A stretch of 64,000 nucleotides of DNA from the NCBI GenBank assembly GCA_035281625.1, contig DATEDO010000219.1, forward strand, positions 3,952-67,951, given 5' to 3'. Made by a program: the position numbers and the translations under genes. The notes beneath the pieces are model-generated. The model was not told the origin of the DNA. It did not search any database and saw only the letters and a list, made by a program, of their open reading frames with translations. Of this stretch, positions 5,412 through 23,431 are shown one piece after another; position 1 is the stretch's first letter, and the number at the start of each line of letters is the position of its first letter. Source of the DNA: Candidatus Methylomirabilota bacterium (GTDB taxonomy: Bacteria > Methylomirabilota > Methylomirabilia > Rokubacteriales > CSP1-6).

Positions 5412-5419
5412 CGGGCGCC

Positions 5420-6214: not shown

Positions 6215-6300
6215 GGGAAATCCTCCTGAGGGCGAGCATCGCACACTTTGACTTGGCGGAAGGCGCCGCGTAGCATCGGCTCACCGAGAGGGGAGGGGCC

Positions 6301-7284: not shown

Positions 7285-7304
7285 CGCGGTACCTCCCCAC
7301 GCGC

Positions 7305-8003
7305 ATGGCCACCTTCTTCGTCGCGCACGGCGCGTGGTCGGCCGGGTGGGCGTGGAAGAAGATGCACCCGCTCCTGCGCGAGCGCGGCCACGCCCTCGTC
7401 GTGCCGACCCAGACCGGCCTCGGCGAGCGCGCGCATCTCGCGGGGCCGGAGATCGACCTCGAGACGCACGTCGCCGATCTCCTCGGCGCGCTCCACTGCG
7501 AGGACCTCCACGACGTGATCCTGCTCGGCCACAGCTACGGCGGCATGGTCGCCACCGTGCTCGCCGATCGCGCGCCGGAGCGCTTCACGCAGCTGGTCTA
7601 TCTCGATGCGTTCGTGCCCCTCGACGGCCAGGCCCTGATCGACCTCGTCCCGCCCGCGCTCAGCCGGAGCTGGCCGGCCGCCGACTGGCGCACGCCGCCC
7701 AACCCGCTGCCACCCGACACGAGTCCGGAGGACGTGGCCTGGATACTGCCGCGCCGCGTGCCCCAGCCGCGCCGCTGCTTCACCCAGCCGGTGAAGCTTA
7801 CCGGCGCGGGCGGCGCGCTGCCCCGGACCTACATCTTCTGCACGCGCCAGGCGCCGGGCGAGCCCTTCCGTCCCTTCGCCGAGCGCGCGCGGCGTGAACG
7901 GGACTGGCGATATCTCGAGATCGACGCGACCCACAGCCCCAACGTCACTGCGCCCGACGCGCTCGCGCGTCTCCTGGACGGGATCGCGCGCGGGGCCGCC
8001 TAG
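7305..8003 (+). CDS. Alpha/beta-fold hydrolase (esterase/hydroxynitrile-lyase-like)
   Basis: 232 aa from the ATG at 7305 (MATFFVAHGAWSAGWAW). The nucleophile elbow is GHSYGG. The ORF-track N-terminal 42 codons overlap the upstream gene and are Arg/Pro-rich, so they are rejected. Confidence 0.8.
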   Translation: MATFFVAHGAWSAGWAWKKMHPLLRERGHALVVPTQTGLGERAHLAGPEIDLETHVADLLGALHCEDLHDVILLGHSYGGMVATVLADRAPERFTQLVYLDAFVPLDGQALIDLVPPALSRSWPAADWRTPPNPLPPDTSPEDVAWILPRRVPQPRRCFTQPVKLTGAGGALPRTYIFCTRQAPGEPFRPFAERARRERDWRYLEIDATHSPNVTAPDALARLLDGIARGAA

Positions 8004-8035
8004 CCTCGGCTACCCACGGGAAGGAGCGCACGCTC

Positions 8036-9415
8036 ATGGCCACGCCCAGCCTCAAGATCGACCACGCCCGCTACGTCATCACCGTGGATGCCCAGCGGCG
8101 CATCATTCGTGACGGCGCCATTCTGGTGGAGAACGGCCGGATCAGCCGCATAGACCGCGCCGCCGCGCTCGCCGATGCTCGCGCGGATCGCGTCATCGAC
8201 GGGCGCGATCTGGTGGTGACGCCCGGCTTCTTCAACGGCCACATGCACATCAGCTACGCGCATCCCGTGCGCGGCATCTTCCCCGACGACGTGGGGAGCC
8301 CGTTGAAGCAAGTGTTCACGCTGCAGGGCGCCATGACGGAGGAGGAGGAGTATCATGCCTCGCTGCTCGCCCTGGTCGAGCTCGTGAAGAACGGCACGGT
8401 GTGCCTCCTCGATCCCGGCTCCACCAAGTATCCCGACGCGTGCCTCCAGGCCTACGAGGACTCGGGCATGCGGGTGATCATGGGTGAGTGCGTGACGGAC
8501 CGGGACGCGCCGTGGCCGCTGCCACGCTACGCCACCGCGGAGGCGGCCAAGCGCACGGTGGCCTTCATCGACAAGTGGAACGGACGGCTCGGGGGACGGC
8601 TCCGCGCCTGGGCCATGCCGTTCTCGCCGGAGACGTGCAGCGCCGAGCTGCTGCAGGCGTGCAAGCGCGCGGTGGACGAGCGGGGCACCGGGCTCACCCT
8701 TCATCACGGCAGCGGGACCCAGGCCCGGCGCGAGTATCAGGCGCGCGGGACCAAGAGCCCCACCGAGTATCTCGAGGGGCTCGGCGTGCTGGGGCCGACC
8801 ACGGTGCTCGCCCATGTCCTCGGGATCGACGACGCCGAGATCGACAGCATGGCCCGCACGGGCACCGCGGTGGCGATGTGTCCCGTCACCGCGGCCAAGG
8901 GCGCCCGCGGGGTGGGGGCGAACGGGCGCCTGCCCGAGCTCCTCGCGCGCGGCGTGCGGGTGGCCCTGGGCTGCGACTCGCCCAACAACTCGAACCACCT
9001 CGATCTCGTCCGCTCCATGAACATGGCGGCCATCCAGTACAAGGACGCGCGCCAGGACATGGCGCAGATCCCTGCGGAGACCGCGCTGGAGCTGGGCACC
9101 CGCGTGGGGGCGGCCGCGCTGGGGCTCGGGGACGACCTGGGCGCCATCGAGGCCGGCCGGCGCGCCGACCTCGTGTGCTTCGACACGCAGCGGCCGGAAT
9201 GGCAGGCGCTGTGGAATCCGGTGAGCAACCTCGTCTACAACGCCGACGGGCGCAGCGTGCACACCGTGGTCATCGACGGCCGCGTCGTCGTCGACGCCTA
9301 CCGCCAGACCTTCGTCGACGAGCGGAAGCTCTACGCCACCGTGCAGGAGATCGGCGAGCGCCTCCAGGCGCGCACCGGCATCACGGCCCCGCCCTCGCGC
9401 TGGCCGGTGGTCTAG
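8036..9415 (+). CDS. Amidohydrolase family protein (cytosine/guanine/chlorohydrolase-type metal-dependent deaminase, TRZ/ATZ-like)
   Basis: 459 aa. A metal-binding HxH (NGHMHISYAH) lies near the N-terminus, with HHGSG and D-rich C-terminal motifs. AAGGAG sits 9 nt upstream of the ATG at 8036. Confidence 0.85.
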   Translation: MATPSLKIDHARYVITVDAQRRIIRDGAILVENGRISRIDRAAALADARADRVIDGRDLVVTPGFFNGHMHISYAHPVRGIFPDDVGSPLKQVFTLQGAMTEEEEYHASLLALVELVKNGTVCLLDPGSTKYPDACLQAYEDSGMRVIMGECVTDRDAPWPLPRYATAEAAKRTVAFIDKWNGRLGGRLRAWAMPFSPETCSAELLQACKRAVDERGTGLTLHHGSGTQARREYQARGTKSPTEYLEGLGVLGPTTVLAHVLGIDDAEIDSMARTGTAVAMCPVTAAKGARGVGANGRLPELLARGVRVALGCDSPNNSNHLDLVRSMNMAAIQYKDARQDMAQIPAETALELGTRVGAAALGLGDDLGAIEAGRRADLVCFDTQRPEWQALWNPVSNLVYNADGRSVHTVVIDGRVVVDAYRQTFVDERKLYATVQEIGERLQARTGITAPPSRWPVV

Positions 9416-9427
9416 CGCTCGTCGTCG

Positions 9428-11062
9428 TTACTTGTCGAGCCAGACGCTCATGAGGCGCCCGCCGTAGTCGTTGCCGATGTTGGGCGCGAAGTTCTTCACG
9501 TAGGGCTCCCAGGCCGAGATGACCCGGGCGGCCGGACTCACGAAGAACTGGTACACGTTCTGGGCGAAGTGGCGCTGGATGTCGAAGATGATCTCGCGCC
9601 GCTTCTTCTCGTCGAAGGTGCGCCGCTGCAGCAGGATCATCTCGTTGAGCTTGGCATCGTTCACGCCGGCGATGTTCTGCGGCCGCCCGGGCAGGAGGTT
9701 CATCAGGTAGGGGTCGGGCGTGGTGGCTCCGCCGCGCAGGGTGACGATCATCTTCTCGAAGTTCCGGGCCAGACTCGAGGCGATGAACGCATTGCCTTCC
9801 TTCAACTTGAGCTCGGTCTCGATACCCGCGCGCTTCCACTCGCTCAGAATGGCCGCCACGACGTCGGAGAACGCCGTGCCCCAGGTGCCGGTGGACTCCA
9901 CCGGCAGCTTGAGCCCGCTGTGCCCGGCCTGCGCGAGCAGCCGCCGAGCCCCCGCCGGGTCGGCCTCGTAGATCTGCCGGCCTTCCTGGGTGAGCTGACC
10001 GATCGGGATCGCCCACTCGGTGAGGGCCGCGGGCACGAGCGGATTGGCCGCGCCGTGCCCGTAGCCCATGGGGTTCACCTTGATCACCTCGTTGAGGTTC
10101 ACCGCCATGTGCAGGGCGCGGCGGACGCGAACGTCGCGGAAGGGCTCGACCTCGAGCTTCGGGATGGCGAGGGTGGAGATGAGCCACGTGTACTCGGCGG
10201 TCTGGATATTCGGCTTCCGCCGCTTGACGACCTCGAGGTCGGCGCGCTGGAACGTCATGTGGATCTCGGGCGCGAAGTCGTACTGGCCGGAGAGCCAGGC
10301 GGCGAGCTTCGAGGCGGGGTCAGTGTCGACGCGGAACTCGATGCCGTCCGCGTAGGGGAGCCCCGACTGGAAGTAGTTGGGGTTGCGCACGAAGGTGAGG
10401 CGCACGTTGGGCTCGTAGCGCTCCAGCATCCAGGGGCCGGTGCCGATCACCGTCTCCGGCGTCTTGAACATGCCGTCCTTGTCGGCCGCTTCCTTGGGAA
10501 GGATGGGGGCCACCGCCGGGCTCTCCAGGAACCACGCGAACGGCTCCTTCATGGTGAACCGTACGGTGTGGCGGTCGAGCGCCTCCACCTTGTCGATCTC
10601 CTCGAAGGCCGCCCGGTTGGGGTTGCCCTTGACGGTGAGCGCCCGCTGGAACGTGAAGACCACGTCCTCCGCGGTGACCTCGCGCCCGTTCACGGGGGGC
10701 TTCGCGTGGAAGCGCACGCCCTTGCGGAGCTTGAAGATGTAGGTGGTGTCGTTGGGCCGCTCCCAGGACTCGGCCAGATGCGGCTCGATGGGGAGAGTTC
10801 CCGGCTGCACGCTCGGGCCGGCCTTGTGGCGCACCAGCCCGCCATGGGTCAACGACGTGTAGATGAACGTCCACCAGTGCGGCGTCTGATGGGGATCGAA
10901 GTGCGGCGGGTCGAAGCCGGCCAGGCGCAGGACCCCGCCCCGCTTGGGCGTCTGCGCGGCGGCGGGGCCGGGACGCAGGAGGTCGAGCGGGCCCACCGCG
11001 GCGGCGGCGCCCGCGAGCTTCAAGAGTTCGCGGCGGCTGACGGTGCCGGGATCCTGATCCAT
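9428..11062 (-). CDS. ABC transporter substrate-binding protein, family 5 (peptide/nickel/opine type, DppA/OppA-like) with Tat signal
   Basis: 544 aa. The N-terminus is SRRELLKLAGAAAAVGP (twin-arginine). The SBP_bac_5 fold is present. GGGAGGAA lies 5 nt upstream of the ATG at 11062. Confidence 0.85.
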   Translation of the reverse strand: MDQDPGTVSRRELLKLAGAAAAVGPLDLLRPGPAAAQTPKRGGVLRLAGFDPPHFDPHQTPHWWTFIYTSLTHGGLVRHKAGPSVQPGTLPIEPHLAESWERPNDTTYIFKLRKGVRFHAKPPVNGREVTAEDVVFTFQRALTVKGNPNRAAFEEIDKVEALDRHTVRFTMKEPFAWFLESPAVAPILPKEAADKDGMFKTPETVIGTGPWMLERYEPNVRLTFVRNPNYFQSGLPYADGIEFRVDTDPASKLAAWLSGQYDFAPEIHMTFQRADLEVVKRRKPNIQTAEYTWLISTLAIPKLEVEPFRDVRVRRALHMAVNLNEVIKVNPMGYGHGAANPLVPAALTEWAIPIGQLTQEGRQIYEADPAGARRLLAQAGHSGLKLPVESTGTWGTAFSDVVAAILSEWKRAGIETELKLKEGNAFIASSLARNFEKMIVTLRGGATTPDPYLMNLLPGRPQNIAGVNDAKLNEMILLQRRTFDEKKRREIIFDIQRHFAQNVYQFFVSPAARVISAWEPYVKNFAPNIGNDYGGRLMSVWLDK

Positions 11063-11281: not shown

Positions 11282-12643
11282 ATGAGCGACTCGGTTCCGG
11301 CTGGACGGTTCAACGCAGGACGCCGCCGGCTGCTCGCCGGCGCGGCGCTGGCAGCCGGCAGTCATCTCGTGCCGCGGCGCGCACGCGCGCAGGGCGCCGC
11401 CCCCTGGGGCGCCCGCCCCGCCGGCAATCCCGCGAACGTCACCTTCGTCGTCTGGCAGTACGGCAACATCTACCAGCAGATCGCCAAGCAATTCGAGGAG
11501 GATTGGGGGGTCAAGGTCAACCAGATCATCGAACCCAATGTCGAGCCGCAGGTGGCCAAGCTCACCGCAATGTACGCGGCGGGCGATCAGGTGGACGTCT
11601 CGCTGTCGCCCATGCAGTACCTGGCCAGCTACATCGACCAGGGCATTGCCACGCCGCTCGACGGGCTGCCTGGGTTGGAGCAGTACGTGAAGGACTTCAC
11701 GCCGTTCACCCGCGCCATCGCCCAGCGCGACGGCAAGACCTGGGGTCTGCCCTACTTCTCGACCTCGTGGGTGTTCATCTACAACGATGAGTTGCTCGCC
11801 AAGGCGGGGTTCAAGGGCAAGCCGTTCAAGAGCTACCCGGAGCTCATCGATCAGGCGCGCAAGGCCAAGCGCGATGGCGTGAGCAAGTACCCGATCCTGT
11901 GGATCGGCGGCGCCGGCTTCGAGCAGCTGCCCGGGACCTGGTTCAGCCTCACCTGCAACCGAGGCGGGGTGATCTTCGACAAGCAGCTGCAGCCGCAGCT
12001 CGGGCCGGGCTCGGTGGCGCGCGAGACGCTGAAGTGGTGGCAGTCGACCTTCAAGGACGAGCTGGCCGACCCGGCCTCGCTCAACGTCCGCTTCATCCCC
12101 GCGGTCAAGGCGTTCAACGCGGGCCAGCACGTCTACCTGGGCACGCTGCACCACTACTACATCAACCTGGTGAACGATGCCGCGCAGTCGCCGCTCGCGG
12201 GCAAGGGGCGCGTGGTCGGTCATCCCGGCGAGGGCAAGACCATCGGCTACACCATGCTCTACATCCTCACCGGGGCCACCAAGCAGCGCGAGTGGGCGTG
12301 GAAGCTCCTCCAGTACCTGGGCGGGCGCACCAAGAACGGGGAGTACACCCAGGCCAACCGCCTGGCCGCCGACGCCATGCTGGGCAGCGGCTACCAGTCG
12401 GTGATGGACAGCGAGCACCTTCGGAAGTCCTGGGCGAAGTGGGCGGACGTCCCCACGCTGCTCGACGTGTGGAAGCGCGCGGTGAACTTCTCGGACGTCG
12501 TGCCCGCGGTCTCGCAGAAGTGGTACCCCCGCTGGAGCGACGCCATCAACGTCGAGCTGACCGCGTGCCTTCAGGGCAAGATCACTGCCGACCAGGCGTG
12601 CGACAACATGGTCGCGGCGGTGGCGAAGGCGAAGCAGGCCTGA
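11282..12643 (+). CDS. Sugar ABC transporter substrate-binding protein (extracellular solute-binding family 1) with Tat signal
   Basis: 453 aa from the ATG at 11282, preceded by GGGAGGAG. The N-terminus is RRRLLAGAALAAGSHLVPRRARAQ. The long ORF-track N-terminal extension (9569..) is antisense to the family-5 binding-protein gene and is rejected. Confidence 0.85.
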   Translation: MSDSVPAGRFNAGRRRLLAGAALAAGSHLVPRRARAQGAAPWGARPAGNPANVTFVVWQYGNIYQQIAKQFEEDWGVKVNQIIEPNVEPQVAKLTAMYAAGDQVDVSLSPMQYLASYIDQGIATPLDGLPGLEQYVKDFTPFTRAIAQRDGKTWGLPYFSTSWVFIYNDELLAKAGFKGKPFKSYPELIDQARKAKRDGVSKYPILWIGGAGFEQLPGTWFSLTCNRGGVIFDKQLQPQLGPGSVARETLKWWQSTFKDELADPASLNVRFIPAVKAFNAGQHVYLGTLHHYYINLVNDAAQSPLAGKGRVVGHPGEGKTIGYTMLYILTGATKQREWAWKLLQYLGGRTKNGEYTQANRLAADAMLGSGYQSVMDSEHLRKSWAKWADVPTLLDVWKRAVNFSDVVPAVSQKWYPRWSDAINVELTACLQGKITADQACDNMVAAVAKAKQA

Positions 12644-12657
12644 TCGCCCGGCGCGCC

Positions 12658-13554
12658 GTGCGCCGGGAGATCTCCGCGCCGCGCCTGGCCCTGCTCCTCA
12701 ACGGGCCGGCGCTCCTGTGCCTCGCCCTGGTCCTCGCGTACCCCGTGCTCTACGCGGGGTTCCTGTCCTTTCACGAGGTCAGCATCCGCCAGCTCCGGAC
12801 CGGAGAGCTGCCGTTCGCGGGGTTGGCGAACTATGCGCGGCTCCTCCACGACGGCGTCTTCTGGCTGGCCCTGGGCCACAGCGCGATCTTCGTGGCCGCA
12901 TCGGTCGTGCTCGAGGTGGTGCTGGGGCTGGCGGTGGCCCTGGTCATCGACGAGGAGCGCGTGGCGATCTCGCGGGTCACGCGCTTCCTCCTGCTCGTGC
13001 CGTGGGCAGTGCCGCCCATCGTCAACGGCCTGCTCTGGTCGTTCATCTTCAACGCGCAGTTCGGCTACCTGAACCGCGTGCTGCACACCGTCGGCCTGAT
13101 CTCGGCGCCGGTCAACTGGCTCGGCGACGGTCGCACCGCGCTGGCCGCGGTGATCGTCGCCTACGTCTGGCGCACCACGCCCTTCAACATCTTGCTCTAC
13201 CACGCCGCCCTTCAGGGAATCCCACGCGAGCTGCACGAGGCGGCCGAGGTCGACGGCGCCTCCGCCTGGCGGCGCTGGTGGGCGATCACGCTGCCGCTGC
13301 TGCGTCCGGTCATCGCGGTGAGCTTGATCCTGCGTACCACCTTCGCCTTCATGGTGTTCGACGAGATCCTGGCCATCACCCAGGGCGGTCCGGGCAACGA
13401 CACCTGGGTCGCCGCCTGGTACACGTACCGCATGGCCTTTCAGCCCCCCTTCGACGTGGGCCTGGGCGCGGCCTCCGCGTACGTGCTGGCCCTGATCGTG
13501 GGGATGGCCGCGCTGCTCTACGTGCGCCTGGTGTACCGGCGCGTGGAGTACTGA
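12658..13554 (+). CDS. Sugar ABC transporter permease (MalF/UgpA-type, first membrane subunit)
   Basis: About 298 aa. A GTG at 12658 is the proposed start, but the start is uncertain. A polar-residue variant of the EAA motif sits in a cytoplasmic loop (EAAEVDGASAWRRWWAITLP). There are six predicted TM segments. Confidence 0.75.
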   Translation: MRREISAPRLALLLNGPALLCLALVLAYPVLYAGFLSFHEVSIRQLRTGELPFAGLANYARLLHDGVFWLALGHSAIFVAASVVLEVVLGLAVALVIDEERVAISRVTRFLLLVPWAVPPIVNGLLWSFIFNAQFGYLNRVLHTVGLISAPVNWLGDGRTALAAVIVAYVWRTTPFNILLYHAALQGIPRELHEAAEVDGASAWRRWWAITLPLLRPVIAVSLILRTTFAFMVFDEILAITQGGPGNDTWVAAWYTYRMAFQPPFDVGLGAASAYVLALIVGMAALLYVRLVYRRVEY

Positions 13555-13556
13555 CG

Positions 13557-14444
13557 GTGCGCCGACTCTCGCGTCGCACCCGTCTCGCGCTGGTCATCGC
13601 GAACCTCGCCGCGATCGGCTTCTTGATCGGGCCGCTGGTGCCGGTGGTGGTGGGCAGCCTGCAGTCCGAGCGCACCATGCAGCGCGACGTGTTCGCGCTG
13701 CTCCCGCGTGAGGTCACGCTGGAGAACTTCCGGCTGATCCTCTCCGGCGGCCGTGACAAGGGCCCGATCTTCGACCAGGTCACCTATCTGCCCGCCTCGG
13801 TGGGGCGCTTTCCCTCGGCCTTCCGCAACAGCACCGTCGTCGCGCTGGCCGTCACCGGGCTGGCCCTGGCCATTGCGAGCCTGTCCGCCTACGCGATCGT
13901 ACGGCTGCCCACGCGACTGACCCGGACGCTTTTCACGGGCAGCGTGGTCGCCCGCATGGTGCCTCTGGTGGTGCTCATCGTGCCGATGTACGTGCTGTTC
14001 CGCCGCTACGAGCTGCTGAACACGCTCACCGGCGTGGTCTGCGCCGAAGTGGGCTTCCTCGTACCCTACGCCGTGCTGATCCTCGCTCCCTACTTCGCGG
14101 CATTGCCCGCCGAGCTCGAGGAGGCCGCGCGCATCGACGGCTGCACGCGGGTGGGGGCGTTCTGGCGTATCGTGCTGCCGCTGTCCACCCCGGGCCTGGC
14201 CGCGTGCGCGGTCGTGCTTTTCATCATCTCGTGGCACGAGCTGTTGATCCCGCTGGTGCTGGCCTCCCGCCCGGAGGTGACGACGCTTCCGGTGATCCTC
14301 TCCGGCCTGGTCTCCGACTACTTCGTGTTCTTCACGCTGATGATGGCGATTTGCCTGCTCGGCATGATCCCCACCGTGGTGCTGGTGCTGTTGCTGCAGC
14401 GCTTTGTCGTGCGAGGTCTGGTGGCAGGAGCGGTGAAAGGATGA
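13557..14444 (+). CDS. Sugar ABC transporter permease (MalG/UgpE-type, second membrane subunit)
   Basis: 295 aa from the GTG at 13557, 2 nt after the upstream stop. EAARIDGCTRVGAFWRIVLPL is the EAA loop. Confidence 0.8.
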   Translation: MRRLSRRTRLALVIANLAAIGFLIGPLVPVVVGSLQSERTMQRDVFALLPREVTLENFRLILSGGRDKGPIFDQVTYLPASVGRFPSAFRNSTVVALAVTGLALAIASLSAYAIVRLPTRLTRTLFTGSVVARMVPLVVLIVPMYVLFRRYELLNTLTGVVCAEVGFLVPYAVLILAPYFAALPAELEEAARIDGCTRVGAFWRIVLPLSTPGLAACAVVLFIISWHELLIPLVLASRPEVTTLPVILSGLVSDYFVFFTLMMAICLLGMIPTVVLVLLLQRFVVRGLVAGAVKG

Positions 14445-15484
14445 GCGTGCGCTTTGCCCTCCTCGGCCACGGCTTGTGGGGCGCGCACCACGCCCGGGCC
14501 ATTGCGCGCACGCCCGGCGCCGAGCTGGTGGCCATCGCCGCGCGTACCGAGGCGGCGGCGGCGCGGGCGAGCCATCCCACCGCGGTGGTCGTGGCCGACT
14601 GGCGGGCGTGCATCGCCCGCGCCGACGTCGACGTGGTCGATGTGGTGTTGCCCGATGACATGCATGAAGAGGTGGCGGTGGCCGCGCTGGAAGCGGGCAA
14701 GCACGTGCTGCTGGAGAAGCCCATGGCCACCACGCTGGCGGGCTGCGATCGCATTCTGCGCGCGGCGCGGGCCGCCGGCCGCGTGCTCTGCGTGGGCCAC
14801 GAGCTCCGCTTGTCCAGCCAGTGGGGCGCCATCCGCGGACTGCTCGACGCGGGGCGGCTCGGTCGGCCCCTGCATGTGTTCGTCTCGCTATGGCGCCGCC
14901 CCTACCGCGGGGGGAGCGAGGGCTGGCGCTACGACCGGGCGCGCGTCGGCTCGTGGCTTCTCGAGGAGACCATCCACTATCTCGATCTGGCCCTCTGGTA
15001 CCTGGAGTCGCTGGGACCGCCGGTGGCGGTGGTCGCGGCGGGGAACAGCAAGGGGCGCGAGCCCGGCCTCTACGACAACTTCTCCACGCTGATCCGCTGG
15101 CCCGACGGCGCCCACGCCACCATCAACCAGACGCTCGCCGGCTTCGGCCACCACCAGGCCGTCCACGTGGTGGGGACGGCCGGCTCGGTGCGCGCCACCT
15201 GGTCGGCGAGCATGGACCGCACGCGGCAGGCGACCGCGCTCGTCGAGGTGCTGGAGGGGCTCACCGGCCACGAGCGCTTCGACGTCGGCGAGCCGTCGGT
15301 GCTGCCGCTTGCCGCGCCCTCGGGGGAGCTCTACGAGCTGGAGGCGGAGATCGCGGCCATGGTGGACGCGGTGCGCACCGGGCGGCCGTTCATGCCGCCC
15401 GAGGCGGCTCGGCGGGCGGTGGCCGTGTGCCTGGCCGCGGAGGAGTCGGCGCGGACCGGCCGCGAGATGGCGCTCGCCGTCTGA
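14441..15484 (+). CDS. Gfo/Idh/MocA family NAD(P)-dependent oxidoreductase
   Basis: 347 aa. The ATG at 14441 overlaps the permease stop (ATGA). The N-terminal Rossmann segment is RFALLGHGLWGAHHARAI, with EKP in the catalytic region. Confidence 0.85.
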   Translation: MSVRFALLGHGLWGAHHARAIARTPGAELVAIAARTEAAAARASHPTAVVVADWRACIARADVDVVDVVLPDDMHEEVAVAALEAGKHVLLEKPMATTLAGCDRILRAARAAGRVLCVGHELRLSSQWGAIRGLLDAGRLGRPLHVFVSLWRRPYRGGSEGWRYDRARVGSWLLEETIHYLDLALWYLESLGPPVAVVAAGNSKGREPGLYDNFSTLIRWPDGAHATINQTLAGFGHHQAVHVVGTAGSVRATWSASMDRTRQATALVEVLEGLTGHERFDVGEPSVLPLAAPSGELYELEAEIAAMVDAVRTGRPFMPPEAARRAVAVCLAAEESARTGREMALAV

Positions 15485-15616: not shown

Positions 15617-18600
15617 TCAGCGCCCGGTCAGGCTCGGGGGGACGAGCGGCCGGTGCTGCACGTCCGGGGACTGTCCGGGCCAGAGCTGGAAGCCGGTCCA
15701 TCGCCAGTCCCGGAAGCGATTCACGTAGAGGCGGCCGGCCGGATCGATGCCGGCGGCGAGCAGCTCCGCGGGCCCGATGGCCACCATGCCCGCGATCACC
15801 ACGAGCGGGCCTGGCGGCGTGTCCACTTGCCACTCGAGCGGCCCGATCTCCCCGTCCCGGAGCGCGCGAAGGATACGCGCCGGCGGCGGGCTCGACGAGG
15901 TCGCCGAGACCAGGCGTCGATCGCCGGTGGTGAGCACGACGAGGCGCGTCGGGCCGAGCGCGCTCAGCGTGATCACATCGTACGCGTTGCCTCCGATCGG
16001 GGCGAAGCCTGGGGGAGCTACCCCGAGCGGACGGAGGCGCCCCGGAAGATCGCTCGGCGCCACGTGGCGATGATACATGCGTCCCTGCGCCTCGTCGGCC
16101 ACGACGAGATCGACATTGCCATCCCCCCAGCTGGACGCCGCGAGCGACCCGAAGACGGTGGCGCGCACGGGGAAATCGCTCGGCAAGAGCACGCCGGCCG
16201 ACCACTGCGCATCCGCGAAGCGCCAGCGGTGCACGCGCTGATCGCTCAGTACCGCGAAGAGCTCGAGGCGCCCCGCGCCGACGCCGATCAAGGCCGGCGC
16301 CGAGAGCGCATTGTTCGCTCCGGGAATCGCGGAAGGCCCACTCCACTGGCCCTGGCGATAGCGCCAGTGCCTGAGCGAGCGATCGCTGCCCATCGCGACC
16401 AGCTCGAGCTGATCGCCGACGGCAACGGCGACGGGACGAGCGGCGGCGGCGATCCCCGGCCGCGGGTCCACCGCCACGTCGATGGGCAGGGCGCCGTCGA
16501 GATAGCGGAGATGCCGCAGCCGGTCATCGGCGCCCACGTAGACCACGTCCACGACACCCGGTCCGGTGGCGATGGCGGTCGGCTCGGCGAGGTAGCCCGG
16601 CACCGCGACGGCGCGACCGCCGGTGAAGCGCGCCGGGATCCCGTCGCCGAGATGCGCCCGCTGGAGCCCGGCATCCGCCCCGACCACGACGAGGTCGCCG
16701 TGACGATCCGTGACGGCCAGCGCGGGCAAGCCCACCATGTCCGGCCACCCCGACCGCTCCCAGCCGCGCCAGTGCACCGCTGCCCACGGCCATCGCCCCC
16801 AGCGCGCGGCGCGATAACTGTTGTGCCACATCGGCCGCGCGGCGGACGCCGGAGTATCCCAGGCCTTGGCCATGAGATGCACCTGGCCATCCCGTGTCAC
16901 GGCCGCCGCGACCCCGCCCGCCACGCGGGGCGCCGGAACTATGCCAGAGCGCTCGAGCGGCAGGCCGACCGCGCTCCAGCCCTGCCACCCTGGGGCCCAG
17001 TTGCGCCCGTCGTTGCCGCCGGCGGCCCACGTGAAGTGATTGTGCCGGAGTCTCCGATCGCTCCCGGTGACGAGCAGCTCGAGCCGCCGGTAGCCTGAGC
17101 AGGCCAGCGTGGGGTCGCCCGCGCCGGCGAGCCCGGTCAGCGTCGTCGACGGCGACCACGACACCCCGGAGCTCCCCACGTTTGGCCGAAAGACGTCGAT
17201 TCCCGCCCAAAGCGGTTGATGCACCAGTGTGCCGTCGGTCCGCCGATAGGCCACGTCCACCCGTCCGTCACCGCAGGCGGCCGCCGAGGGGGCGCCGGCC
17301 AGGGTGGCGCCCGGGATGTTGAAGGCCGAGCCCCAGAGGCCGGTCTCGAGGTCGAAGGCCATCACGACGAGGCGCGAAGCCTGGTCGGCGAAGATCAGCA
17401 CGAGCTTGTTGGCCGCCTGCACCAGGATCGGATCGCGAAACGGCGGCGCGGCAACGACGCGCGGGGCCGCGAGCGCGCTCGCGGCCTGCCAGGCGCCGTC
17501 GAGGCGCCGCACGTGATGGAGCCGCCCGTCCACCGAGCGCAGGACGACCTCGAGCTGGCCCGCGGCCGTGGTGACCGCGGCCGGCCGGTGCGCGTCGAAG
17601 GTGACGCCCGGGGGCGAGGCCGGCGTCGCCACCTGGCTCCACGCGCCGCCGCGCAACGTCGCGTGCAGCAGCCGGCCGCTCGTGCTGACCGCGAGGGCGT
17701 CGAGTCGATCACCGCCTGCGCTCAGGAGCGCGGGGTCCCCCGCCATCGCCTGGTCGAGCGGGACCGAAGCGAAGGTGCCGCCGCCTCCGGACTCGCGGCG
17801 CCCGTGGTAGAGGCGGCCCCCGCCGCCTCGCACCGCGACGTGCAGCGTGGGCTCGGGGACTTCGGGGCGCGCCAGATACGTGGACCGAAGCCGCGGCGGC
17901 GGCGGGGCGGTCACGGCGAACTGCATCACATCGGCTCGTCCGCCGCCGTCGAAGTCGCCGGCCAGCACGACCATGTCGGCCGACGTGTCCCAGCGGGCCC
18001 ATTGTCGCGTCGAGAAGCCGGTCCCCGTCGAGGCGCCCACCCAGAGGCCGTACTCCGCCGTCCCGCTGAGGGGCACGTCGAACTTCATGACGTCGGTCTT
18101 GCCGTCGCCGGTGAAGTCGCCCGCGAGTACCTTCATCTCTCGATAGGTGTCCCAGCGCGCCCACTCGGTGGTGGTGAAGCGGCCCCCGTCGGAGAGGCCG
18201 ACCCAGAGGCCGAGCTGCGCCACGCCGCCGGAGGGCACGTCGAATTTCATGACGTCGGTCTTGCCGTCGCCGTTGAAGTCCCCGGTGAGCACCTTCATCT
18301 CGTGATAGGTGTCCCAGGTCGCCCACGGGGCGGCGGCGAACTGGAAGCTCGCCCCGTCGGACAGCCCCACCCGCAGGCCCGAGGCCCGCACGCCGCTCAG
18401 CGGCACCTCGATGGTGAGCACGTCCGTCTTGCCATCGCCGTTGAAGTCGCCCACCACGACCTGCCACGCCTGGGGGACGATGGCCGCCGACCATCGGCTG
18501 AAATGGAACGCGCGGCCGTCGGAGAGGCCCACCCAGATCCCCGACATGTACTGGTCCCTGATCAGCACATCGGTCTTCCCGTCGCCGTTGAAATCGCCGG

Positions 18601-19654
18601 TGTGGAGAACCATCCTCGGCGAGGTCGTCCACGTAGCCCAGCGCGAGAAGGCGAGCTGCTGCCCATCGGAGAGACCGACCATGAGCCCGGCGGGCCGGCG
18701 GGCGGTCGGGGCGACATCGAGCTTCAGCACGTCGGCCTTGCCGTCACCGTTGAAGTCGCCCGCGTAGACGCGCGCCTCACCATCGGTGTCCAGCCGACCC
18801 CACTCGGCGCCGCTGAAGGACCGCGTGCCGCCTCGCCCCATGGGCCCGCGGGACAGCCCCACCTGGAAGGCGCCCGAGGCCGGCTCCGGCACGAATCCCA
18901 GGCGCGGCACGGCGAACCGGCTGTACGAGAGCGTGCGCGTGACGTCCACGGGGGCGGACAGCGGGCCGGCAAGTCGCTGTACCGCGGTGTCCACCACCTC
19001 GCGCCGCGCGTTGCCGGAGAGCGAGATGCCGACCGGAGTGGGCTGGGCGCGCAGCCGGACCTGGCTGCCTTGCGCGTGCGGCGTCCCGAACGCCAGGGAT
19101 CCGCCGACCTGATAGTCGCTGATGGTGAGGGTGACGTCGTATCGTTCGTTGGCCTCGGGGACGAAGATCCGGCCGCTCACGCTCGCCCGCACGCTCAGGC
19201 CGAAGTAGACGATCTGATTGCCAGGATCGAAGGTGAAGCGGGGCGCGCCGCGCAGCTCGACGCGAGCCTGAGTGAGGCGCTCCAACCGCGCGTCGAGACC
19301 CTGCACCAGGGAAGCGATCTCGGGCCCGATCCAGGTGTTCAGCTCGCGCTCCGCCTCGGCGCCCGCCCGCTCCATCATCTCGGGCGTGAAGCGGAAGGCG
19401 CCGCGCTGCCGGAAGACGTCGCGCAGATTGCTCGAGACGATGCGGTTGCTGGCGTCGAACGTGATGACGATCACCGCTCCGTGCCAGGGTGCGAGCGTGT
19501 CGTTCGCGCCCTCGGCGGTGCCGAGCTGACGGGTATACGTCGCGACGTCGTAGTCGGTCAGGAAGAACGCCGGAGAGCAACCGCCCAGCGTGACGGCGGC
19601 GAGGGCCATCGCCGCGAGTGCCTGTCCAAGACGGCGCCGCCGTCGCCGGCTCAT
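15617..19654 (-). CDS. Giant secreted lipoprotein (1345 aa): N-terminal unknown domain, six FG-GAP/VCBS-type repeats, then a second ~10-unit propeller-like repeat module
   Basis: The signal peptide with lipobox is MSRRRRRRLGQALAAMALAAVTLGGC. GDFNGDGK(A/T)DV occurs five times and GDFDGGGRADV once (FG-GAP calcium-binding consensus). The C-terminal 740 aa contain repeated R-L-(R/Y/H)-H-x-R-(Y/F)-x-x-G-x-W-(S/T) units. The ATG at 19652-19654 overlaps the stop of the upstream gene. Confidence 0.8.
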   Translation of the reverse strand: MSRRRRRRLGQALAAMALAAVTLGGCSPAFFLTDYDVATYTRQLGTAEGANDTLAPWHGAVIVITFDASNRIVSSNLRDVFRQRGAFRFTPEMMERAGAEAERELNTWIGPEIASLVQGLDARLERLTQARVELRGAPRFTFDPGNQIVYFGLSVRASVSGRIFVPEANERYDVTLTISDYQVGGSLAFGTPHAQGSQVRLRAQPTPVGISLSGNARREVVDTAVQRLAGPLSAPVDVTRTLSYSRFAVPRLGFVPEPASGAFQVGLSRGPMGRGGTRSFSGAEWGRLDTDGEARVYAGDFNGDGKADVLKLDVAPTARRPAGLMVGLSDGQQLAFSRWATWTTSPRMVLHTGDFNGDGKTDVLIRDQYMSGIWVGLSDGRAFHFSRWSAAIVPQAWQVVVGDFNGDGKTDVLTIEVPLSGVRASGLRVGLSDGASFQFAAAPWATWDTYHEMKVLTGDFNGDGKTDVMKFDVPSGGVAQLGLWVGLSDGGRFTTTEWARWDTYREMKVLAGDFTGDGKTDVMKFDVPLSGTAEYGLWVGASTGTGFSTRQWARWDTSADMVVLAGDFDGGGRADVMQFAVTAPPPPRLRSTYLARPEVPEPTLHVAVRGGGGRLYHGRRESGGGGTFASVPLDQAMAGDPALLSAGGDRLDALAVSTSGRLLHATLRGGAWSQVATPASPPGVTFDAHRPAAVTTAAGQLEVVLRSVDGRLHHVRRLDGAWQAASALAAPRVVAAPPFRDPILVQAANKLVLIFADQASRLVVMAFDLETGLWGSAFNIPGATLAGAPSAAACGDGRVDVAYRRTDGTLVHQPLWAGIDVFRPNVGSSGVSWSPSTTLTGLAGAGDPTLACSGYRRLELLVTGSDRRLRHNHFTWAAGGNDGRNWAPGWQGWSAVGLPLERSGIVPAPRVAGGVAAAVTRDGQVHLMAKAWDTPASAARPMWHNSYRAARWGRWPWAAVHWRGWERSGWPDMVGLPALAVTDRHGDLVVVGADAGLQRAHLGDGIPARFTGGRAVAVPGYLAEPTAIATGPGVVDVVYVGADDRLRHLRYLDGALPIDVAVDPRPGIAAAARPVAVAVGDQLELVAMGSDRSLRHWRYRQGQWSGPSAIPGANNALSAPALIGVGAGRLELFAVLSDQRVHRWRFADAQWSAGVLLPSDFPVRATVFGSLAASSWGDGNVDLVVADEAQGRMYHRHVAPSDLPGRLRPLGVAPPGFAPIGGNAYDVITLSALGPTRLVVLTTGDRRLVSATSSSPPPARILRALRDGEIGPLEWQVDTPPGPLVVIAGMVAIGPAELLAAGIDPAGRLYVNRFRDWRWTGFQLWPGQSPDVQHRPLVPPSLTGR
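17914..18772 (-). repeat. Six tandem FG-GAP repeat-coding units (~50-55 codons each) inside the giant lipoprotein gene
   Basis: The protein-level repeats GDFNGDGKxDV...VGLSDG...F...W..W are spaced about 53 aa apart. The nucleotide-level periodicity follows from them. Confidence 0.7.
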
Positions 19655-20745
19655 GGCGCCGGCACCAGGGTGAACTCGATCCAGACCTGCTCGCCGGCGG
19701 AGGGCAGCGGGAAGCCGTCCTCCGCGCTGAACACGACGCGCCAGGTGAGCGTCGCGCCCGCTTGCGGCTCATCCGAGCGGTAGTTGGGCGTCACGAACAC
19801 GAGGTTGTGGTTCGGCCGGCAGAGCGACGCCCGATTGTTGGCCGGATCGGGGCCGAGATCGACAGCGCCGTCGGGGGCACTGGCCTCGCCGTGACAGTCC
19901 TGGACCGGCACGCCCTGGCTCCGGACCCGCACGTACTGGGGCGCGATCACCCGCTGCAGGGTGAAGGCGGGATCCATCAGGAGATCCCCCCCGCATTCGT
20001 CCCCCCGACCCTCCATCGGGGGGACGGCGCACGTTCCGACCAGCACGCGCACCTTGCTGACATGCAGCCGGGGGTCGAAGGCCTCCTTCACGGTCGTGGA
20101 GTCGCGGATTCCGCTCCAGAGCCATTCGTCGGAGGCAGCCCCGGGCTGCATGAGGCGAGGAGGCAGCGTGAACTTGCTCGACAGCACGTTGAACCGCACC
20201 GAGGTCCCCGGCTGGCTTGGTACCGGGGGCAGGTCGGGGTACGAGACGTGGGCCAGATAGTCGCCGGTTTCCGACGGCGCGAAGGTCGGAGGGTCGGAGG
20301 TCCCCGCGCAGCCGCTGGAGATGCTGAACCGGGCATCCTCGACCAGCATGTCGGAGTCGATTCGTCGGTGATTCACGGTGACCGACGTTGCGGTTGGGAC
20401 GGTGAACCGGCCGGTCGGGCAGCGGTCCTGCGGCAGACAGAAGTTGCAAGACTGACCGAACCGGATCTCGGGCCAGGTGACGGAGACCGGCGGGGCGGGG
20501 GCGACCCAGTACCGAACCCGCGCGGGAAGGCTCGCCCGGTCGTCGACGAAAGCCGGGACGAAGGTGGCGTCGGTCAGATGCACGCTGCCCGGCGCGAAGT
20601 CGAGCGGCGTCTGCGAAACGCAGGCGATCTGCGAGAGCAGAAGCAGGATGGCGCCGAGCCCGACGACGGCTTCGACCGCGAGGATGCCGCGCGACCGCGC
20701 CGGGGATCCGAGCGCGGCGCGTATGCGCGCGACAGCTGCGATCAT
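19651..20745 (-). CDS. Hypothetical secreted/membrane-anchored Cys-rich protein (364 aa)
   Basis: The ATG at 20743-20745 overlaps the lgt stop (ATGA). An N-terminal hydrophobic segment (ILAVEAVVGLGAILLLLSQIAC) precedes 10 Cys in the mature part. No recognizable family. The ORF-track N-terminal 204 codons overlap lgt out of frame and are Arg-rich, so they are rejected. Confidence 0.6.
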   Translation of the reverse strand: MIAAVARIRAALGSPARSRGILAVEAVVGLGAILLLLSQIACVSQTPLDFAPGSVHLTDATFVPAFVDDRASLPARVRYWVAPAPPVSVTWPEIRFGQSCNFCLPQDRCPTGRFTVPTATSVTVNHRRIDSDMLVEDARFSISSGCAGTSDPPTFAPSETGDYLAHVSYPDLPPVPSQPGTSVRFNVLSSKFTLPPRLMQPGAASDEWLWSGIRDSTTVKEAFDPRLHVSKVRVLVGTCAVPPMEGRGDECGGDLLMDPAFTLQRVIAPQYVRVRSQGVPVQDCHGEASAPDGAVDLGPDPANNRASLCRPNHNLVFVTPNYRSDEPQAGATLTWRVVFSAEDGFPLPSAGEQVWIEFTLVPAP

Positions 20746-21569
20746 GCGGCGGCCGCCCGCATCCGCAGCGCGCGACGGCGTCGCGCGGCCAGTCCGCCGA
20801 GTCCGATGAGGCCCAGGGCGGCGCCGATGAGCTGCGCTTCGGTGAGCCCGAACGCGATCGGGGGGTTGAGCCGGAGAAACTCGATACCGAAGCGCGCCGC
20901 GCTCGAGAGCACGAGATAGAGGCAGAAGACGCTGCCCTCCGGGTGCGATCTCCGGGCCCACAGAAGGAGCGCCGCGCAGATGAGGCCGGCGAGGAGGAAC
21001 TCGTATACCGGCGTGGGGTGGCAGGGCGTGTCGTCCGGCACCACGCCGTTGGGGAAGCTCGCCACGAGCTCGGGCAGCCCTGCGAACGCCCGCGAGGGCG
21101 GTACGAGACCGCCGTCGTATCGCGTTCCCCACGGCAGGTCGGTGGGCCGTCCGTAGTCGCCGTCGCCGGCCAGGTGGCAGCCGAGGCGGCCGATGCCATA
21201 GGCCAGCACGAGCGCGGGAGCGCCCGCGTCGGCGATGCGCGCCACCGGAAGCCCCCGAAGCCGCAGGTAGAGGAAGATCGCGGCCATCGCCGCGAGCAGC
21301 CCCCCGTACCAGGTCATGGTGTCGCGCCAGGCGCCGGCCCATGCGAGCAGGGACCACGCGCGACCCTCGTCGGCAAGGCTCAGCGCCTTGGATCCGGCCA
21401 CACCGAAAAGGATGGCGAGGGCCGTGATATCCCGGGCGACCCTCGCGTCCAAGGACCTTTGCCGTAGCTCGTAGGTCAGAAGCGCCGCGCCCACGACGAA
21501 GGCGGCGAGCAGCATGAGTCCATAGCCGTAGACGGGGACCTGCCCGATGTGGAAAAGCACCGGCGCCAT
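20742..21569 (-). CDS. lgt: Prolipoprotein diacylglyceryl transferase
   Basis: 275 aa. Lgt signature segments include GRLGCHLAGDGDYGRPTDLPWG, HPTPVYEFLLAGL and YLVLSSAARFGIEFLR. It has multiple TM helices. Confidence 0.85.
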   Translation of the reverse strand: MAPVLFHIGQVPVYGYGLMLLAAFVVGAALLTYELRQRSLDARVARDITALAILFGVAGSKALSLADEGRAWSLLAWAGAWRDTMTWYGGLLAAMAAIFLYLRLRGLPVARIADAGAPALVLAYGIGRLGCHLAGDGDYGRPTDLPWGTRYDGGLVPPSRAFAGLPELVASFPNGVVPDDTPCHPTPVYEFLLAGLICAALLLWARRSHPEGSVFCLYLVLSSAARFGIEFLRLNPPIAFGLTEAQLIGAALGLIGLGGLAARRRRALRMRAAAA

Positions 21570-21637: not shown

Positions 21638-23431
21638 CTACCAGGCCAGGGCGTACGTGGGGCGCCGCGGGTCCGCGCCGGCGGCCAGTACGCCGGTGGC
21701 GGGATCCCGCTGCGTCACCACCGCGCCGATGCCGCAGGCGCCCATCTCGATCACGCGGTGGCCGAGGGCGGCGAGCGCCTCGCGCGTGGCCGCGGGAATG
21801 CCCGGCTCCACGTTCAGCACGCCGGGCTTGTAGGCGCGCGGGTAGAACGAGTTGGTGAGCGTCTGGGTGGAGAAGCGCGGCGCTTCCACCGCCTGCTGCG
21901 GGTTCATCCCGAAGACGAGCAGGTTCAGCACGATCTGGAGATCGGCCTGCGCCTGATCGTCGCCGCCGGGGCAGCCCACCGTGGTCGTGGGCACGCCGTT
22001 CTCGGCGATGAGGTAGCTCACCAGGGTCGTGCGCGGGCGCTTGCCGGGGGCGAGCGCGTTGGGATGCCCCTCCTCGAGCACGAACATCTCGCTCCTCGTG
22101 CTCAGTGTGCAGCCGAGCTCGGGAGAGAACGCCGATTTCCGGAACACGCCCCCGCTCGGGGTGAGCGCCACCATGCTGCCGTCGCGGTCGATGGCCGCGA
22201 TGTGAGTGGTGCCGTCGGGGATGGGCGCGGTGGCGTCCGCGCGGGGCGTGGCGGCCGCGCGAGCCCGGGCGGCGCAATCGGGCCAGAGATCGCCCGGCGC
22301 GGGCGCCTCGGGCGCGGCGCGGTCCATGCGGATCAGCGCGGCGCGCTCCCTCGCGTAGGCGGGCGCCAGGAGCTCGGCCATGGGCACCGCGGCGTGCTCG
22401 GGATCACCGTAGTAGCGCTCGCGATCGGCGAAGGCGAGCTTGAGCGCCTCCGCCACCACGTGGATGTAGGCGGGGGTGTTGTGTCCCAGCGCGCGGAGGT
22501 CCACGTCCGCGAGCATGGTGAGCGCCTGCATGAGCACCGGCCCCTGGGTCCAGGGGCCCTGACCGAGAATCTCCCGTCCCGCGAAGCTCACGCGAAGCGG
22601 GGCCTCCAGCCGCGCGCGATAGCCGGCGAGGTCGGACGCGCGCAGCAGGCCGCCGAGCCGGGCCGAGAAGGCGCCGATGGTCTCGGCCACGTCGCCCTGA
22701 TAGAAGCGCCCCCGCGCGGCGGCGATCTCGGCGGCCCGATGATCGGTTGCCGGTTGTTCCGGCCCGGCGAGTCGGCGAAGCGTCGCGGCGAGGGCGGGCT
22801 GGGAGACGAGCGCGCCCAGCGGCGGCACGCGACCGCCGGGATAGAACACGTCGTGGCCGCCCGGCGGGTAGCGATCGAACTGCTGGCGCGACTCGGGAAT
22901 GGCCAGCATGCGGTGCATGTAGTCGTACATGGGGAAGCCGCGCTCGGCGTACTCGAGCGCCGGCGCCAGCACGTCGCTGACCGAGCGCGTCCCGTGCCGC
23001 TCCAGCAGGGTGAGAAAGGCGTCCACCGCGCCCGGCACCGTGAACGAGAGATGCGCGTCGGCGCCCGGTCCGGTGGGGATGCGGTCGAGGCCCCGGCCGC
23101 GGAAGAACGGGATGGTCGCGAGCGCGGGGGCCGTGCCCTGGCCGCTCAGGGCCAGCGTCTCGCCGCGGCGGGCGTCGTGGATCATGGCCACGCACTCGCC
23201 GCAGAGCGTGTAGGACGCGGTCGGCTCCACCACCGCGGCAGCGAGGCCGGCGGCGGCGGCGGCGTCGAAGGCGTTGCCCCCGGCGATGAGCATGCGCATG
23301 CCCGCCATCGCGACGAGGGGATGGCCCGCGCTGACCACACCCTGCGTGCCCGACACGACGGGCCGGGTGGTGGCGCGCTCCGCGGTGTGGTGCTCCATCT
23401 CGTGAACTCGAGGGCCGGGAGTCGTGGTCAT
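21638..23431 (-). CDS. ggt: Gamma-glutamyltransferase family protein
   Basis: 597 aa. Ntn-hydrolase GGT motifs include GGNAFDAAAAAGLAAAVVEP and a T-rich catalytic region (PDGTTHIAAIDRDGSMVALTPS). AGGAGG lies 12 nt upstream of the ATG at 23431. Confidence 0.85.
   Translation of the reverse strand: MTTTPGPRVHEMEHHTAERATTRPVVSGTQGVVSAGHPLVAMAGMRMLIAGGNAFDAAAAAGLAAAVVEPTASYTLCGECVAMIHDARRGETLALSGQGTAPALATIPFFRGRGLDRIPTGPGADAHLSFTVPGAVDAFLTLLERHGTRSVSDVLAPALEYAERGFPMYDYMHRMLAIPESRQQFDRYPPGGHDVFYPGGRVPPLGALVSQPALAATLRRLAGPEQPATDHRAAEIAAARGRFYQGDVAETIGAFSARLGGLLRASDLAGYRARLEAPLRVSFAGREILGQGPWTQGPVLMQALTMLADVDLRALGHNTPAYIHVVAEALKLAFADRERYYGDPEHAAVPMAELLAPAYARERAALIRMDRAAPEAPAPGDLWPDCAARARAAATPRADATAPIPDGTTHIAAIDRDGSMVALTPSGGVFRKSAFSPELGCTLSTRSEMFVLEEGHPNALAPGKRPRTTLVSYLIAENGVPTTTVGCPGGDDQAQADLQIVLNLLVFGMNPQQAVEAPRFSTQTLTNSFYPRAYKPGVLNVEPGIPAATREALAALGHRVIEMGACGIGAVVTQRDPATGVLAAGADPRRPTYALAW

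Follow-up and report, generated by a model that had tools for sequence, protein, structure and literature searches.

What kind of repeat makes up the C-terminal part of a large predicted lipoprotein in a Methylomirabilota genome is the question raised by this locus. The protein, of 1345 amino acids (aa), is encoded on the minus strand (15617..19654) of the stretch analyzed here, 64,000 nucleotides (nt) of contig DATEDO010000219.1 from a Candidatus Methylomirabilota bacterium, referred to as the window; its open reading frame (ORF) is delimited by frame analysis and by homologues. An initial annotation, made from the sequence alone, had described about ten repeat units of 55-75 aa after an FG-GAP region, had compared them with the blades of beta-propeller lectins of the AAL/RSL or tectonin type, and had stated that their consensus, R-L-(R/Y/H)-H-x-R-(Y/F)-x-x-G-x-W-(S/T), matched no repeat that could be named. 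Our results indicate that the region in question, aa 597-1345, is very probably a diverged beta-propeller of the PLL type (Photorhabdus lectin; Pfam Beta-prop_PLL PF26607 and DUF346 PF03984; UniLectin PropLec7A). An apparent orphan repeat can thus be placed in a family that is already described and structurally well characterized.

Family assignment and blade count

The PLL family consists of seven-bladed propellers with sugar sites between the blades, built on conserved Trp pairs (PMC5584973; PMC6943638; PMC12203525), and DUF346 has been equated with the PLL-like lectin class PropLec7A (PMC7778903). An exact-sequence look-up showed no entry for the window protein. Database searching gave 17 homologues of the window protein, most of them about 1040 aa long, and an alignment of the window protein with 16 homologues (alignment A1, 17 sequences) was used as the family profile. 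Against all PDB sequences this profile matched eight chains, every one of them a PLL-family lectin of Photorhabdus, with E-values of 2.4e-30 for PLL2 (6rfz), 4.6e-22 for PLL4 (8q82), 7e-22 for PHL (5mxe), 7e-21 for PLL (5c9o), 8e-17 for PLL3 (6t96) and 2.9e-13 for PLL5. Several blades were aligned in register in these matches, and beyond the PLL-family chains the search returned only one spurious match at E<=10.

The predicted fold points in the same direction. An AlphaFold2 model was computed for aa 590-1345 together with 16 homologues; it has a predicted local distance difference test score (pLDDT) of 85 and a predicted template modeling score (pTM) of 0.89, and it is almost all beta, with 52 strands. 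When the model was compared with the PDB by Foldseek, ranks 1-22 of the 50 matches listed were all PLL-family lectins (E about 1e-13), and the match to PLL4 had a template modeling (TM) score of 0.79 normalized to the target and a root-mean-square deviation of 4.6 over 394 columns. Among the matches listed, the PLL lectins are followed by the lectins CV39L and BP39L and then by generic tandem double propellers. CV39L and BP39L, from Chromobacterium violaceum and Burkholderia pseudomallei (6gxs, 6gxr), share the seven-bladed lectin fold (Foldseek E 3e-9 to 2e-8; TM-score normalized to the target 0.42-0.64) but have no sequence-profile match at E<=10, and are clearly more distant than the PLL family. 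Elp2, the Utp/WDR proteins and the LRP6 ectodomain also have two consecutive propellers per chain and match with weaker E-values of about 1e-9 to 1e-8, but these are built from unrelated WD40 or YWTD blades, with TM-scores normalized to the query of 0.18-0.29 and no sequence similarity. The initial suggestion that the units are propeller blades with lectins as their nearest characterized relatives is therefore supported by the AlphaFold2 model, the PDB profile search and Foldseek, which agree.

Family records of the homologues are consistent with this assignment. A PF26607 match is recorded for 16 of the 17 homologues, at E<=1e-5 for two of them (P0006 and P0011), and three of the eight homologues that were rescanned (P0006, P0011 and P0013) score above the gathering cut-off of DUF346, an earlier Pfam model for this repeat. 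The Pfam set used for our scans lacks PF26607, and PLL2 itself is matched there only as DUF346. At the level of single units, blades 3, 5, 6, 10 and 11 of the window protein match the PLL2 blade profile at 83-96% by hhalign. A blade hidden Markov model made from PLL2 alone found seven window blades in register and gave one match in the FG-GAP region; its scores were weak, and it has been superseded by the profile-profile comparison.

The more specific comparisons made at first did not hold. AAL/RSL-type six-bladed fucose lectins, tectonins and PQQ propellers were all absent from the PDB profile search at E<=10, and none of the three kinds is among the 50 Foldseek matches listed. The Pfam families for fungal fucose lectin, tectonin and PQQ gave no match at E<=10 for the window protein or at E<=1 for eight homologues. 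Of the four families compared, PLL, tectonin, fungal fucose lectin and PQQ, only PLL was matched, and a confident match of this kind, here by profile and by fold, is what the initial annotation had named as refuting its claim; the description of the repeat as one that cannot be named does not hold.

The repeat-bearing part itself lies where it had been placed, after the FG-GAP region, and extends over 15617-17866 on the minus strand (aa ~597-1345; window position 17857, where the region had been taken to begin, is aa 600 of the ORF). The number and size of the units differ from the first description. From the secondary structure of the AlphaFold2 model and the motif positions, 14 units can be delimited, each of four strands and 40-67 aa long (mean 52.4), in two sets of seven, where about ten had been counted before.

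The two sets of units are related to each other. In an hhalign comparison, aa 597-971 align to aa 972-1345 with a probability of 99.8% (E=1.5e-28, 322 columns, in register), and alignments of the two halves shifted by one blade are also significant. When all blades were compared with all others, blades 1, 2, 3, 5, 6, 9, 10, 11 and 14 were mutually linked at 80-99%, blades 4, 7, 8 and 12 were linked at 85-95% to at least one other unit, and blade 13 was the weakest link at 56-72%. The core [LVM]-x-H-x-[RH] occurs six times against 0.47 expected, a count reached in 0 of 2000 shuffles. Mean pairwise identity between blades is 29.6%, compared with 25.8% for shuffled blades and 63.3% within PLL2, and Tandem Repeats Finder found no DNA-level tandem repeat in 15617-17857. 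The repeat is thus real, and the low blade identity and the lack of a repeat at the DNA level indicate that it is ancient and diverged.

The 14 blades most likely form two seven-bladed rings in tandem, a reading of the model that we favor because of the in-register 7+7 duplication and the fit to a seven-bladed lectin (TM-score 0.79, as given above). The two rings would have arisen through duplication of one seven-blade unit. From the profile, AlphaFold2, Foldseek and hhalign results, predicted propeller 1 comprises blades 1-7 (aa 597-971; 16742..17866, minus) and predicted propeller 2 comprises blades 8-14 (aa 972-1330; 15665..16741, minus). They are followed by a conserved C-terminal tail, P..PPSLTGR (aa 1331-1345; 15620..15664, minus), in which the P..P is conserved in alignment A1 and DSSP assigns a strand at model residues 752-755, equivalent to aa 1341-1344. 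This terminal beta-strand may serve as the closing strand for blade 1, which is without an innermost strand of its own.

Blade motif, sugar sites and conserved clusters

PLL lectins and the window protein have in common blades of four strands and about 48-52 aa, with seven to a ring. Within the blade they share G-R/Q-L-E-V/L in strand B, an Asp in the B-C turn, the L-x-H of strand C and the G-x-W-S of strand D. The motif D-x-x-L-x-H-x-R-[YF]...G-x-W of the window blades is mainly the structural core of the blade, formed by the B-C turn Asp, the strand C Leu and His and the strand D Trp. The consensus given in the initial annotation is in this sense a genuine blade core. As a strict regular expression it has no matches, and its relaxed form finds only the three strings that had been offered as examples, all of which are present: RSLRHWRYRQGQWSGP (aa 1092-1107), QRVHRWRFADAQWSAG (aa 1139-1154) and GRLYVNRFRDWRWTGF (aa 1307-1322).

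The differences from PLL lectins are considerable. The window protein appears to have two tandem propellers where PLL lectins have one, and its blades are strongly differentiated, with 30% pairwise identity compared with 63% in PLL2. Near-identical blades, which make binding by PLL lectins multivalent, were not found in it. The C-D loop is about three residues shorter than in PLL in most blades, whereas blades 6-7 carry long conserved insertions.

The sugar sites of PLL and PHL sit between blades (PMC5584973; PMC12203525). The hydrophobic (H) site, for fucose or O-methyl sugars, is made of the B-C turn Thr, the Trp of 'ALWH' and the second Trp of 'WSxW' (PMC5584973; PMC12203525), and the polar (P) site, of the galactose type, combines the strand B Arg and Glu with Trp and Gln from 'HxWQ' and with the first Trp in 'WSxW' (PMC5584973). 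These positions were mapped by rebuilding PLL2 residues 27-359 from printed alignments and aligning them with hhalign onto each of the 14 blades. The first fucose-site Trp (W1) is found in blade 7 only (W943), the second (W4) in blades 6 and 7 (W893 and W965), and the Thr or Ser in blades 2, 5, 6, 10 and 11; by this mapping, no blade has a complete hydrophobic site. None of the 14 blades has the stacking Trp (W2) or the Gln that belong to the polar site, the Arg and Glu pair is present in two (blades 6 and 11) and W3 is retained in nine, so that the mapping gives no complete polar site either. Where the two Trp of the hydrophobic site and the Trp and Gln of the polar site are replaced, the substitute is mostly Arg, Tyr, His or Phe. 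In seven blades a conserved Arg occupies the position of the polar-site Trp. This Arg is also present in distant homologues, several of them named Blastocatellia, and it is therefore probably not an artefact of the guanine plus cytosine (G+C) content, which is ~70% in the window.

Conservation within the family is not seven-fold symmetric and is concentrated in blades 6-7 and 10-12. Blades 6-7 of propeller 1 (16742-17125, minus) have conserved Trp-rich insertions in their C-D loops, NDGRNWAPGWQGW and RWGRWPWAAVHWRGWE, and the conserved motifs RHNHF, DGR...GWQGW, FHN.Y and PW..VHWRGWE; H871, N872, H873, D882, N945 and R963 are invariant polar residues of these two blades, and W890, Q891, W893, W957 and W962 also belong to this cluster. 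In blades 10-12 the conserved motifs are HWRY..G.WS, W.F..G.W and SSWGDGxVD, with H1096, W1097, R1098, W1104, W1144, W1151 and S1174-D1182 as the clustered residues, and blades 10-11 (16160-16447, minus) are the units closest to PLL. Given this asymmetry, one or a few specialized sites are to be expected rather than 7-14 equivalent ones.

The near-invariant, FG-GAP-like SSWGDGxVD is in blade 12, at aa 1174-1182 (16109-16135, minus). No short motif of the family is better conserved than this one, which is preceded by F-G and resembles an FG-GAP calcium-loop motif set inside a PLL-type blade. The whole F-G...S-S-W-G-D-G-x-V-D stretch gives a sub-threshold match to FG-GAP_3 (E 3e-4 to 2e-3). Likeness to FG-GAP/VCBS repeats (integrin alpha type, PF13517/PF01839) is restricted to this blade, as the other 13 blades are without the DxNGDGxxD loop and have profile and fold similarity to PLL, not to integrin-type propellers. 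PLL2 itself cross-matches FG-GAP_3 at 2.8e-13, which indicates that the PLL and FG-GAP repeat families are related.

Several points weigh against placing the region among the PLL propellers and against a lectin function. The window protein taken by itself has no match in the repeat region to DUF346 or another propeller Pfam family at E<=10, and when the whole protein, its C-terminal 756 aa and each of the two halves were scanned against Pfam and NCBIfam, the only propeller family to appear in that region was FG-GAP_3, below threshold, at blade 12. A phmmer search of the window C-terminus against the PDB returned only a spurious match, to LHCA3 (E 0.054). The membership of the window protein rests on family profiles and a predicted fold, and the two-ring geometry is deduced from the duplication and the fit. 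In none of the 14 blades is a canonical site of either kind complete. Furthermore, PLLs are soluble proteins of ~370 aa with no signal peptide and a single propeller (PMC12203525), whereas the window protein is multi-domain and predicted to be lipid-anchored. The relationship to PLL emerges only through the family profile or the comparison of folds, and this explains why the repeat looked like an orphan from the sequence alone.

Possible functions of the predicted double propeller

Until now, the PLL-type propellers that have been characterized were all small, soluble, multivalent lectins from insect-pathogenic Photorhabdus. New here are differentiated tandem propellers of apparently the same type in large, predicted lipid-anchored proteins of soil bacteria, without canonical lectin sites. 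The residues that hold the blade together are kept while the canonical sites are incomplete in every blade, and the family is thus a natural test of how far a lectin fold can be re-purposed. It also calls for caution in annotation: the label 'fucose lectin' should not be transferred from a match to PF26607 or DUF346.

We propose that aa 597-1345 would form the extracytoplasmic part of a lipid-anchored envelope protein, with the propellers serving to bind a ligand, a glycan or glycoconjugate that belongs to the cell envelope or to the environment. The ligand would be bound at one or a few non-canonical, specialized sites in the clusters of blades 6-7 and 10-12, and the propellers would act jointly with a possibly lipid-binding, TULIP-like N-domain and a co-encoded partner lipoprotein. 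The lectin ancestry and the aromatic and polar conserved clusters suggest that the propellers might bind carbohydrate, which we put forward tentatively and with somewhat less than even confidence.

The alternative that survives best is that the double propeller is a protein-protein scaffold of the envelope which docks the partner lipoprotein and/or other envelope proteins, and that its PLL blades are merely inherited. The lipoprotein BamB and the periplasmic TolB are propeller proteins that act as scaffolds. A scaffold would fit the loss of the canonical sugar-contact residues in all 14 blades, the lipobox of the protein and the asymmetric conservation in blades 6-7 and 10-12, which is what specific interfaces would be expected to produce. 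It would also fit the retention of the partner lipoprotein gene across phyla and its translational coupling in the window. However, all close structural and sequence relatives with a known function are lectins, and Trp, His, Asn, Arg and Asp abound in the clusters (GWQGW, HNHF, HWRGWE, SSWGDG), a composition that is typical of carbohydrate sites, even if not exclusive to them. We consider a scaffold rather unlikely, though a serious contender.

Catalytic propellers appear improbable. In this case the invariant His, Asn, Asp and Arg residues of blades 6-7 would make up the active site of, for example, a glycosidase, lyase or cyclase-like enzyme, and six such residues (H871, N872, H873, D882, N945 and R963) are indeed concentrated in these two neighboring blades. 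A single asymmetric site is common among propeller enzymes. Still, no enzyme family was matched by sequence, no propeller enzyme is among the 50 fold matches listed, in which the lectins are followed by non-enzymatic scaffold propellers, and the conserved insertions are, as judged from secondary structure, in the C-D loops and not around the central channel. We give hardly any credence to the view that the region is an undescribed repeat family with a superficial likeness to propeller lectins: the window sequence alone is unmatched in Pfam, NCBIfam and the PDB, its strict consensus is L-[YHR]-H-x-R-[YF] against L-W-H-[IN]-W-Q in PLL, and its C-D loop is shorter by ~3 residues, yet the profile reaches PLL2 at E=2.4e-30 with several blades in register, the top 22 fold matches are PLL-family lectins, and PF26607 is recorded for homologues of which three pass DUF346.

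The rest of the protein, its partner gene and its distribution

The PLL-type propellers are the last element of the 1345-aa ORF, in which a lipoprotein signal is followed by a conserved N-domain, an FG-GAP insertion and then the two predicted propellers. The minus-strand frame has a third-position GC of 0.83-0.95 over 15617-19654 by GC frame analysis, is the sole coding-type ORF there, and is also backed by homologues. The predicted signal peptide (19577..19654, minus; translation MSRRRRRRLGQALAAMALAAVTLGGC) ends in the lipobox L-G-G-C, with ...AAVTLGGC matching the pattern [LVI][ASTVIG][GAS]C and the Cys at position 26. G25 and C26 are invariant across the 13 family members of alignment A2, and the protein is presumably lipidated at Cys26. 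Its n-region, RRRRRR, could suggest a Tat signal; this was rejected, as an RRxFL-type motif is lacking and the n-regions of the homologues are ordinary.

The conserved N-domain (aa ~27-270; 18845..19576, minus) has no Pfam or NCBIfam match. Its model, of medium confidence (pLDDT 76, pTM 0.70), consists of a helix and a long curved beta-sheet. In a Foldseek comparison with the PDB, nearly all of the 50 matches listed were lipid binders of the TULIP type (BPI, LBP, SPLUNC1/BPIFA1, Takeout/JHBP, SMP and CETP), and these matches are weak (E 4e-4 to 0.25, TM-score 0.2-0.46). It is the predicted arrangement of a long helix with long curved antiparallel strands around it that retrieves almost solely the TULIP superfamily, and there is no match to a sequence family. 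The N-domain may thus be a lipid-binding, TULIP-like module fused to the propellers, which the model offers as a lead only.

Between the N-domain and the propellers lies an FG-GAP/VCBS-type region (17885..18787, minus) with six DFxGDGKxDV units, found by Pfam and a motif scan, with motifs at aa 300-576 and Pfam matches over aa ~300-590 (PF13517 at 1.6e-25, PF01839 at 2.1e-19). The segment is found only in the window and in one close relative, the metagenome locus L010 described below, and is absent from the ~1040-aa homologues, in which the lipobox and the conserved N-domain of ~270 aa are followed directly by the 14 blades. From this comparison the segment appears to be a lineage-specific insertion. 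Tandem Repeats Finder detected 162-nt DNA repeats, corresponding to 54 aa or one FG-GAP unit, with 78-81% matches at 17985-18452 (minus), and these suggest a recent amplification of blades after the domain had been inserted.

Upstream of the lipoprotein gene is a partner gene (19651..20745, minus) that codes for 364 aa with a signal/lipobox-like N-terminus and belongs to no known family in Pfam and NCBIfam scans. Its stop codon overlaps the start of the lipoprotein gene (ATGA), and its own start is overlapped in the same way (ATGA) by the stop of lgt, the gene for prolipoprotein diacylglyceryl transferase (20742..21569, minus; PF01790 at 1.6e-45). The ATGA overlaps indicate that the lipidating enzyme is apparently co-translated with two predicted lipoprotein genes. 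A partner homologue is found directly upstream of the orthologue in eight of nine Acidobacteriota loci (L001-L005 and L007-L009) and in L010. In the ninth (L006) the upstream gene has the same size, position and lipobox and aligns to the partner at 25% identity, and in two further loci (L011 and L012) the upstream position of the partner is taken by a gene of 404 or 364 aa that has no Pfam match. The comparison of loci thus suggests that the partner and the lipoprotein form a conserved two-lipoprotein cassette.

The closest relative of the cassette is L010 (ENA ERZ25039555 contig_56492, locus 4225-9463), which comes from a metagenome and is 67-72% identical. It shows the gene order of the window (DHDPS, GGT, LGT, partner, lipoprotein), and the linkage to lgt was found only in these two loci. 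The L010 cassette is split into called genes of 151, 658, 114 and 432 aa, with tblastn pieces in different frames, and these splits are most likely assembly frameshifts rather than real pseudogenes.

The partner gene and the possible lipid-binding N-domain supply concrete hypotheses for the cassette. At its furthest, the proposal would make the two genes an envelope machine for glycolipids that is so far undescribed, a bacterial, membrane-tethered analogue of glycolipid handling by LBP/BPI. The propellers would recognize the glycan head group through re-invented sites rich in Arg and aromatic residues, and the N-domain would bind the acyl chains. We regard this as a long shot; if true, it would place handling of the LBP/BPI type in soil Acidobacteriota and Methylomirabilota.

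Beyond the partner gene the neighborhood is not conserved, and depending on the locus it contains an HtrA-like protease, a sigma-54 activator, a kinase, a methyltransferase or MacB. In the window, a convergent, sugar-uptake-like operon (~11300-15484, plus) codes for a solute-binding protein, two ABC permeases (PF00528) and a GFO/IDH/MocA oxidoreductase, and ends 133 nt from the lipoprotein stop. The sugar ABC transporter and GFO/IDH/MocA genes are not conserved beside the homologues and are therefore not taken as functionally linked.

An exhaustive profile search of 1.84 billion representative sequences returned 4800 proteins at E<=1e-3, and the majority of these are PLL-like propellers of a generic kind, matched over several short stretches. 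The family itself is small: the full-length architecture of N-domain and double propeller was seen in about 35 of the representatives listed, and fragments were found as well. A scan of genome contigs gave relatives from Acidobacteriota only, at 30-36% identity, and the named relatives of the lipoprotein are from Blastocatellia and Pyrinomonadaceae (Acidobacteriota). That these named relatives are Acidobacteriota suggests either that the family is patchily distributed or that it has passed between soil phyla. The adjacent gamma-glutamyltransferase gene (21638-23431, minus) has its best named relatives in Methylomirabilota, at 77-79% identity, which together with the G+C content makes an uncultured, Rokubacteria-like member of this phylum the probable source of the window, and metagenome proteins match it at up to 93%.

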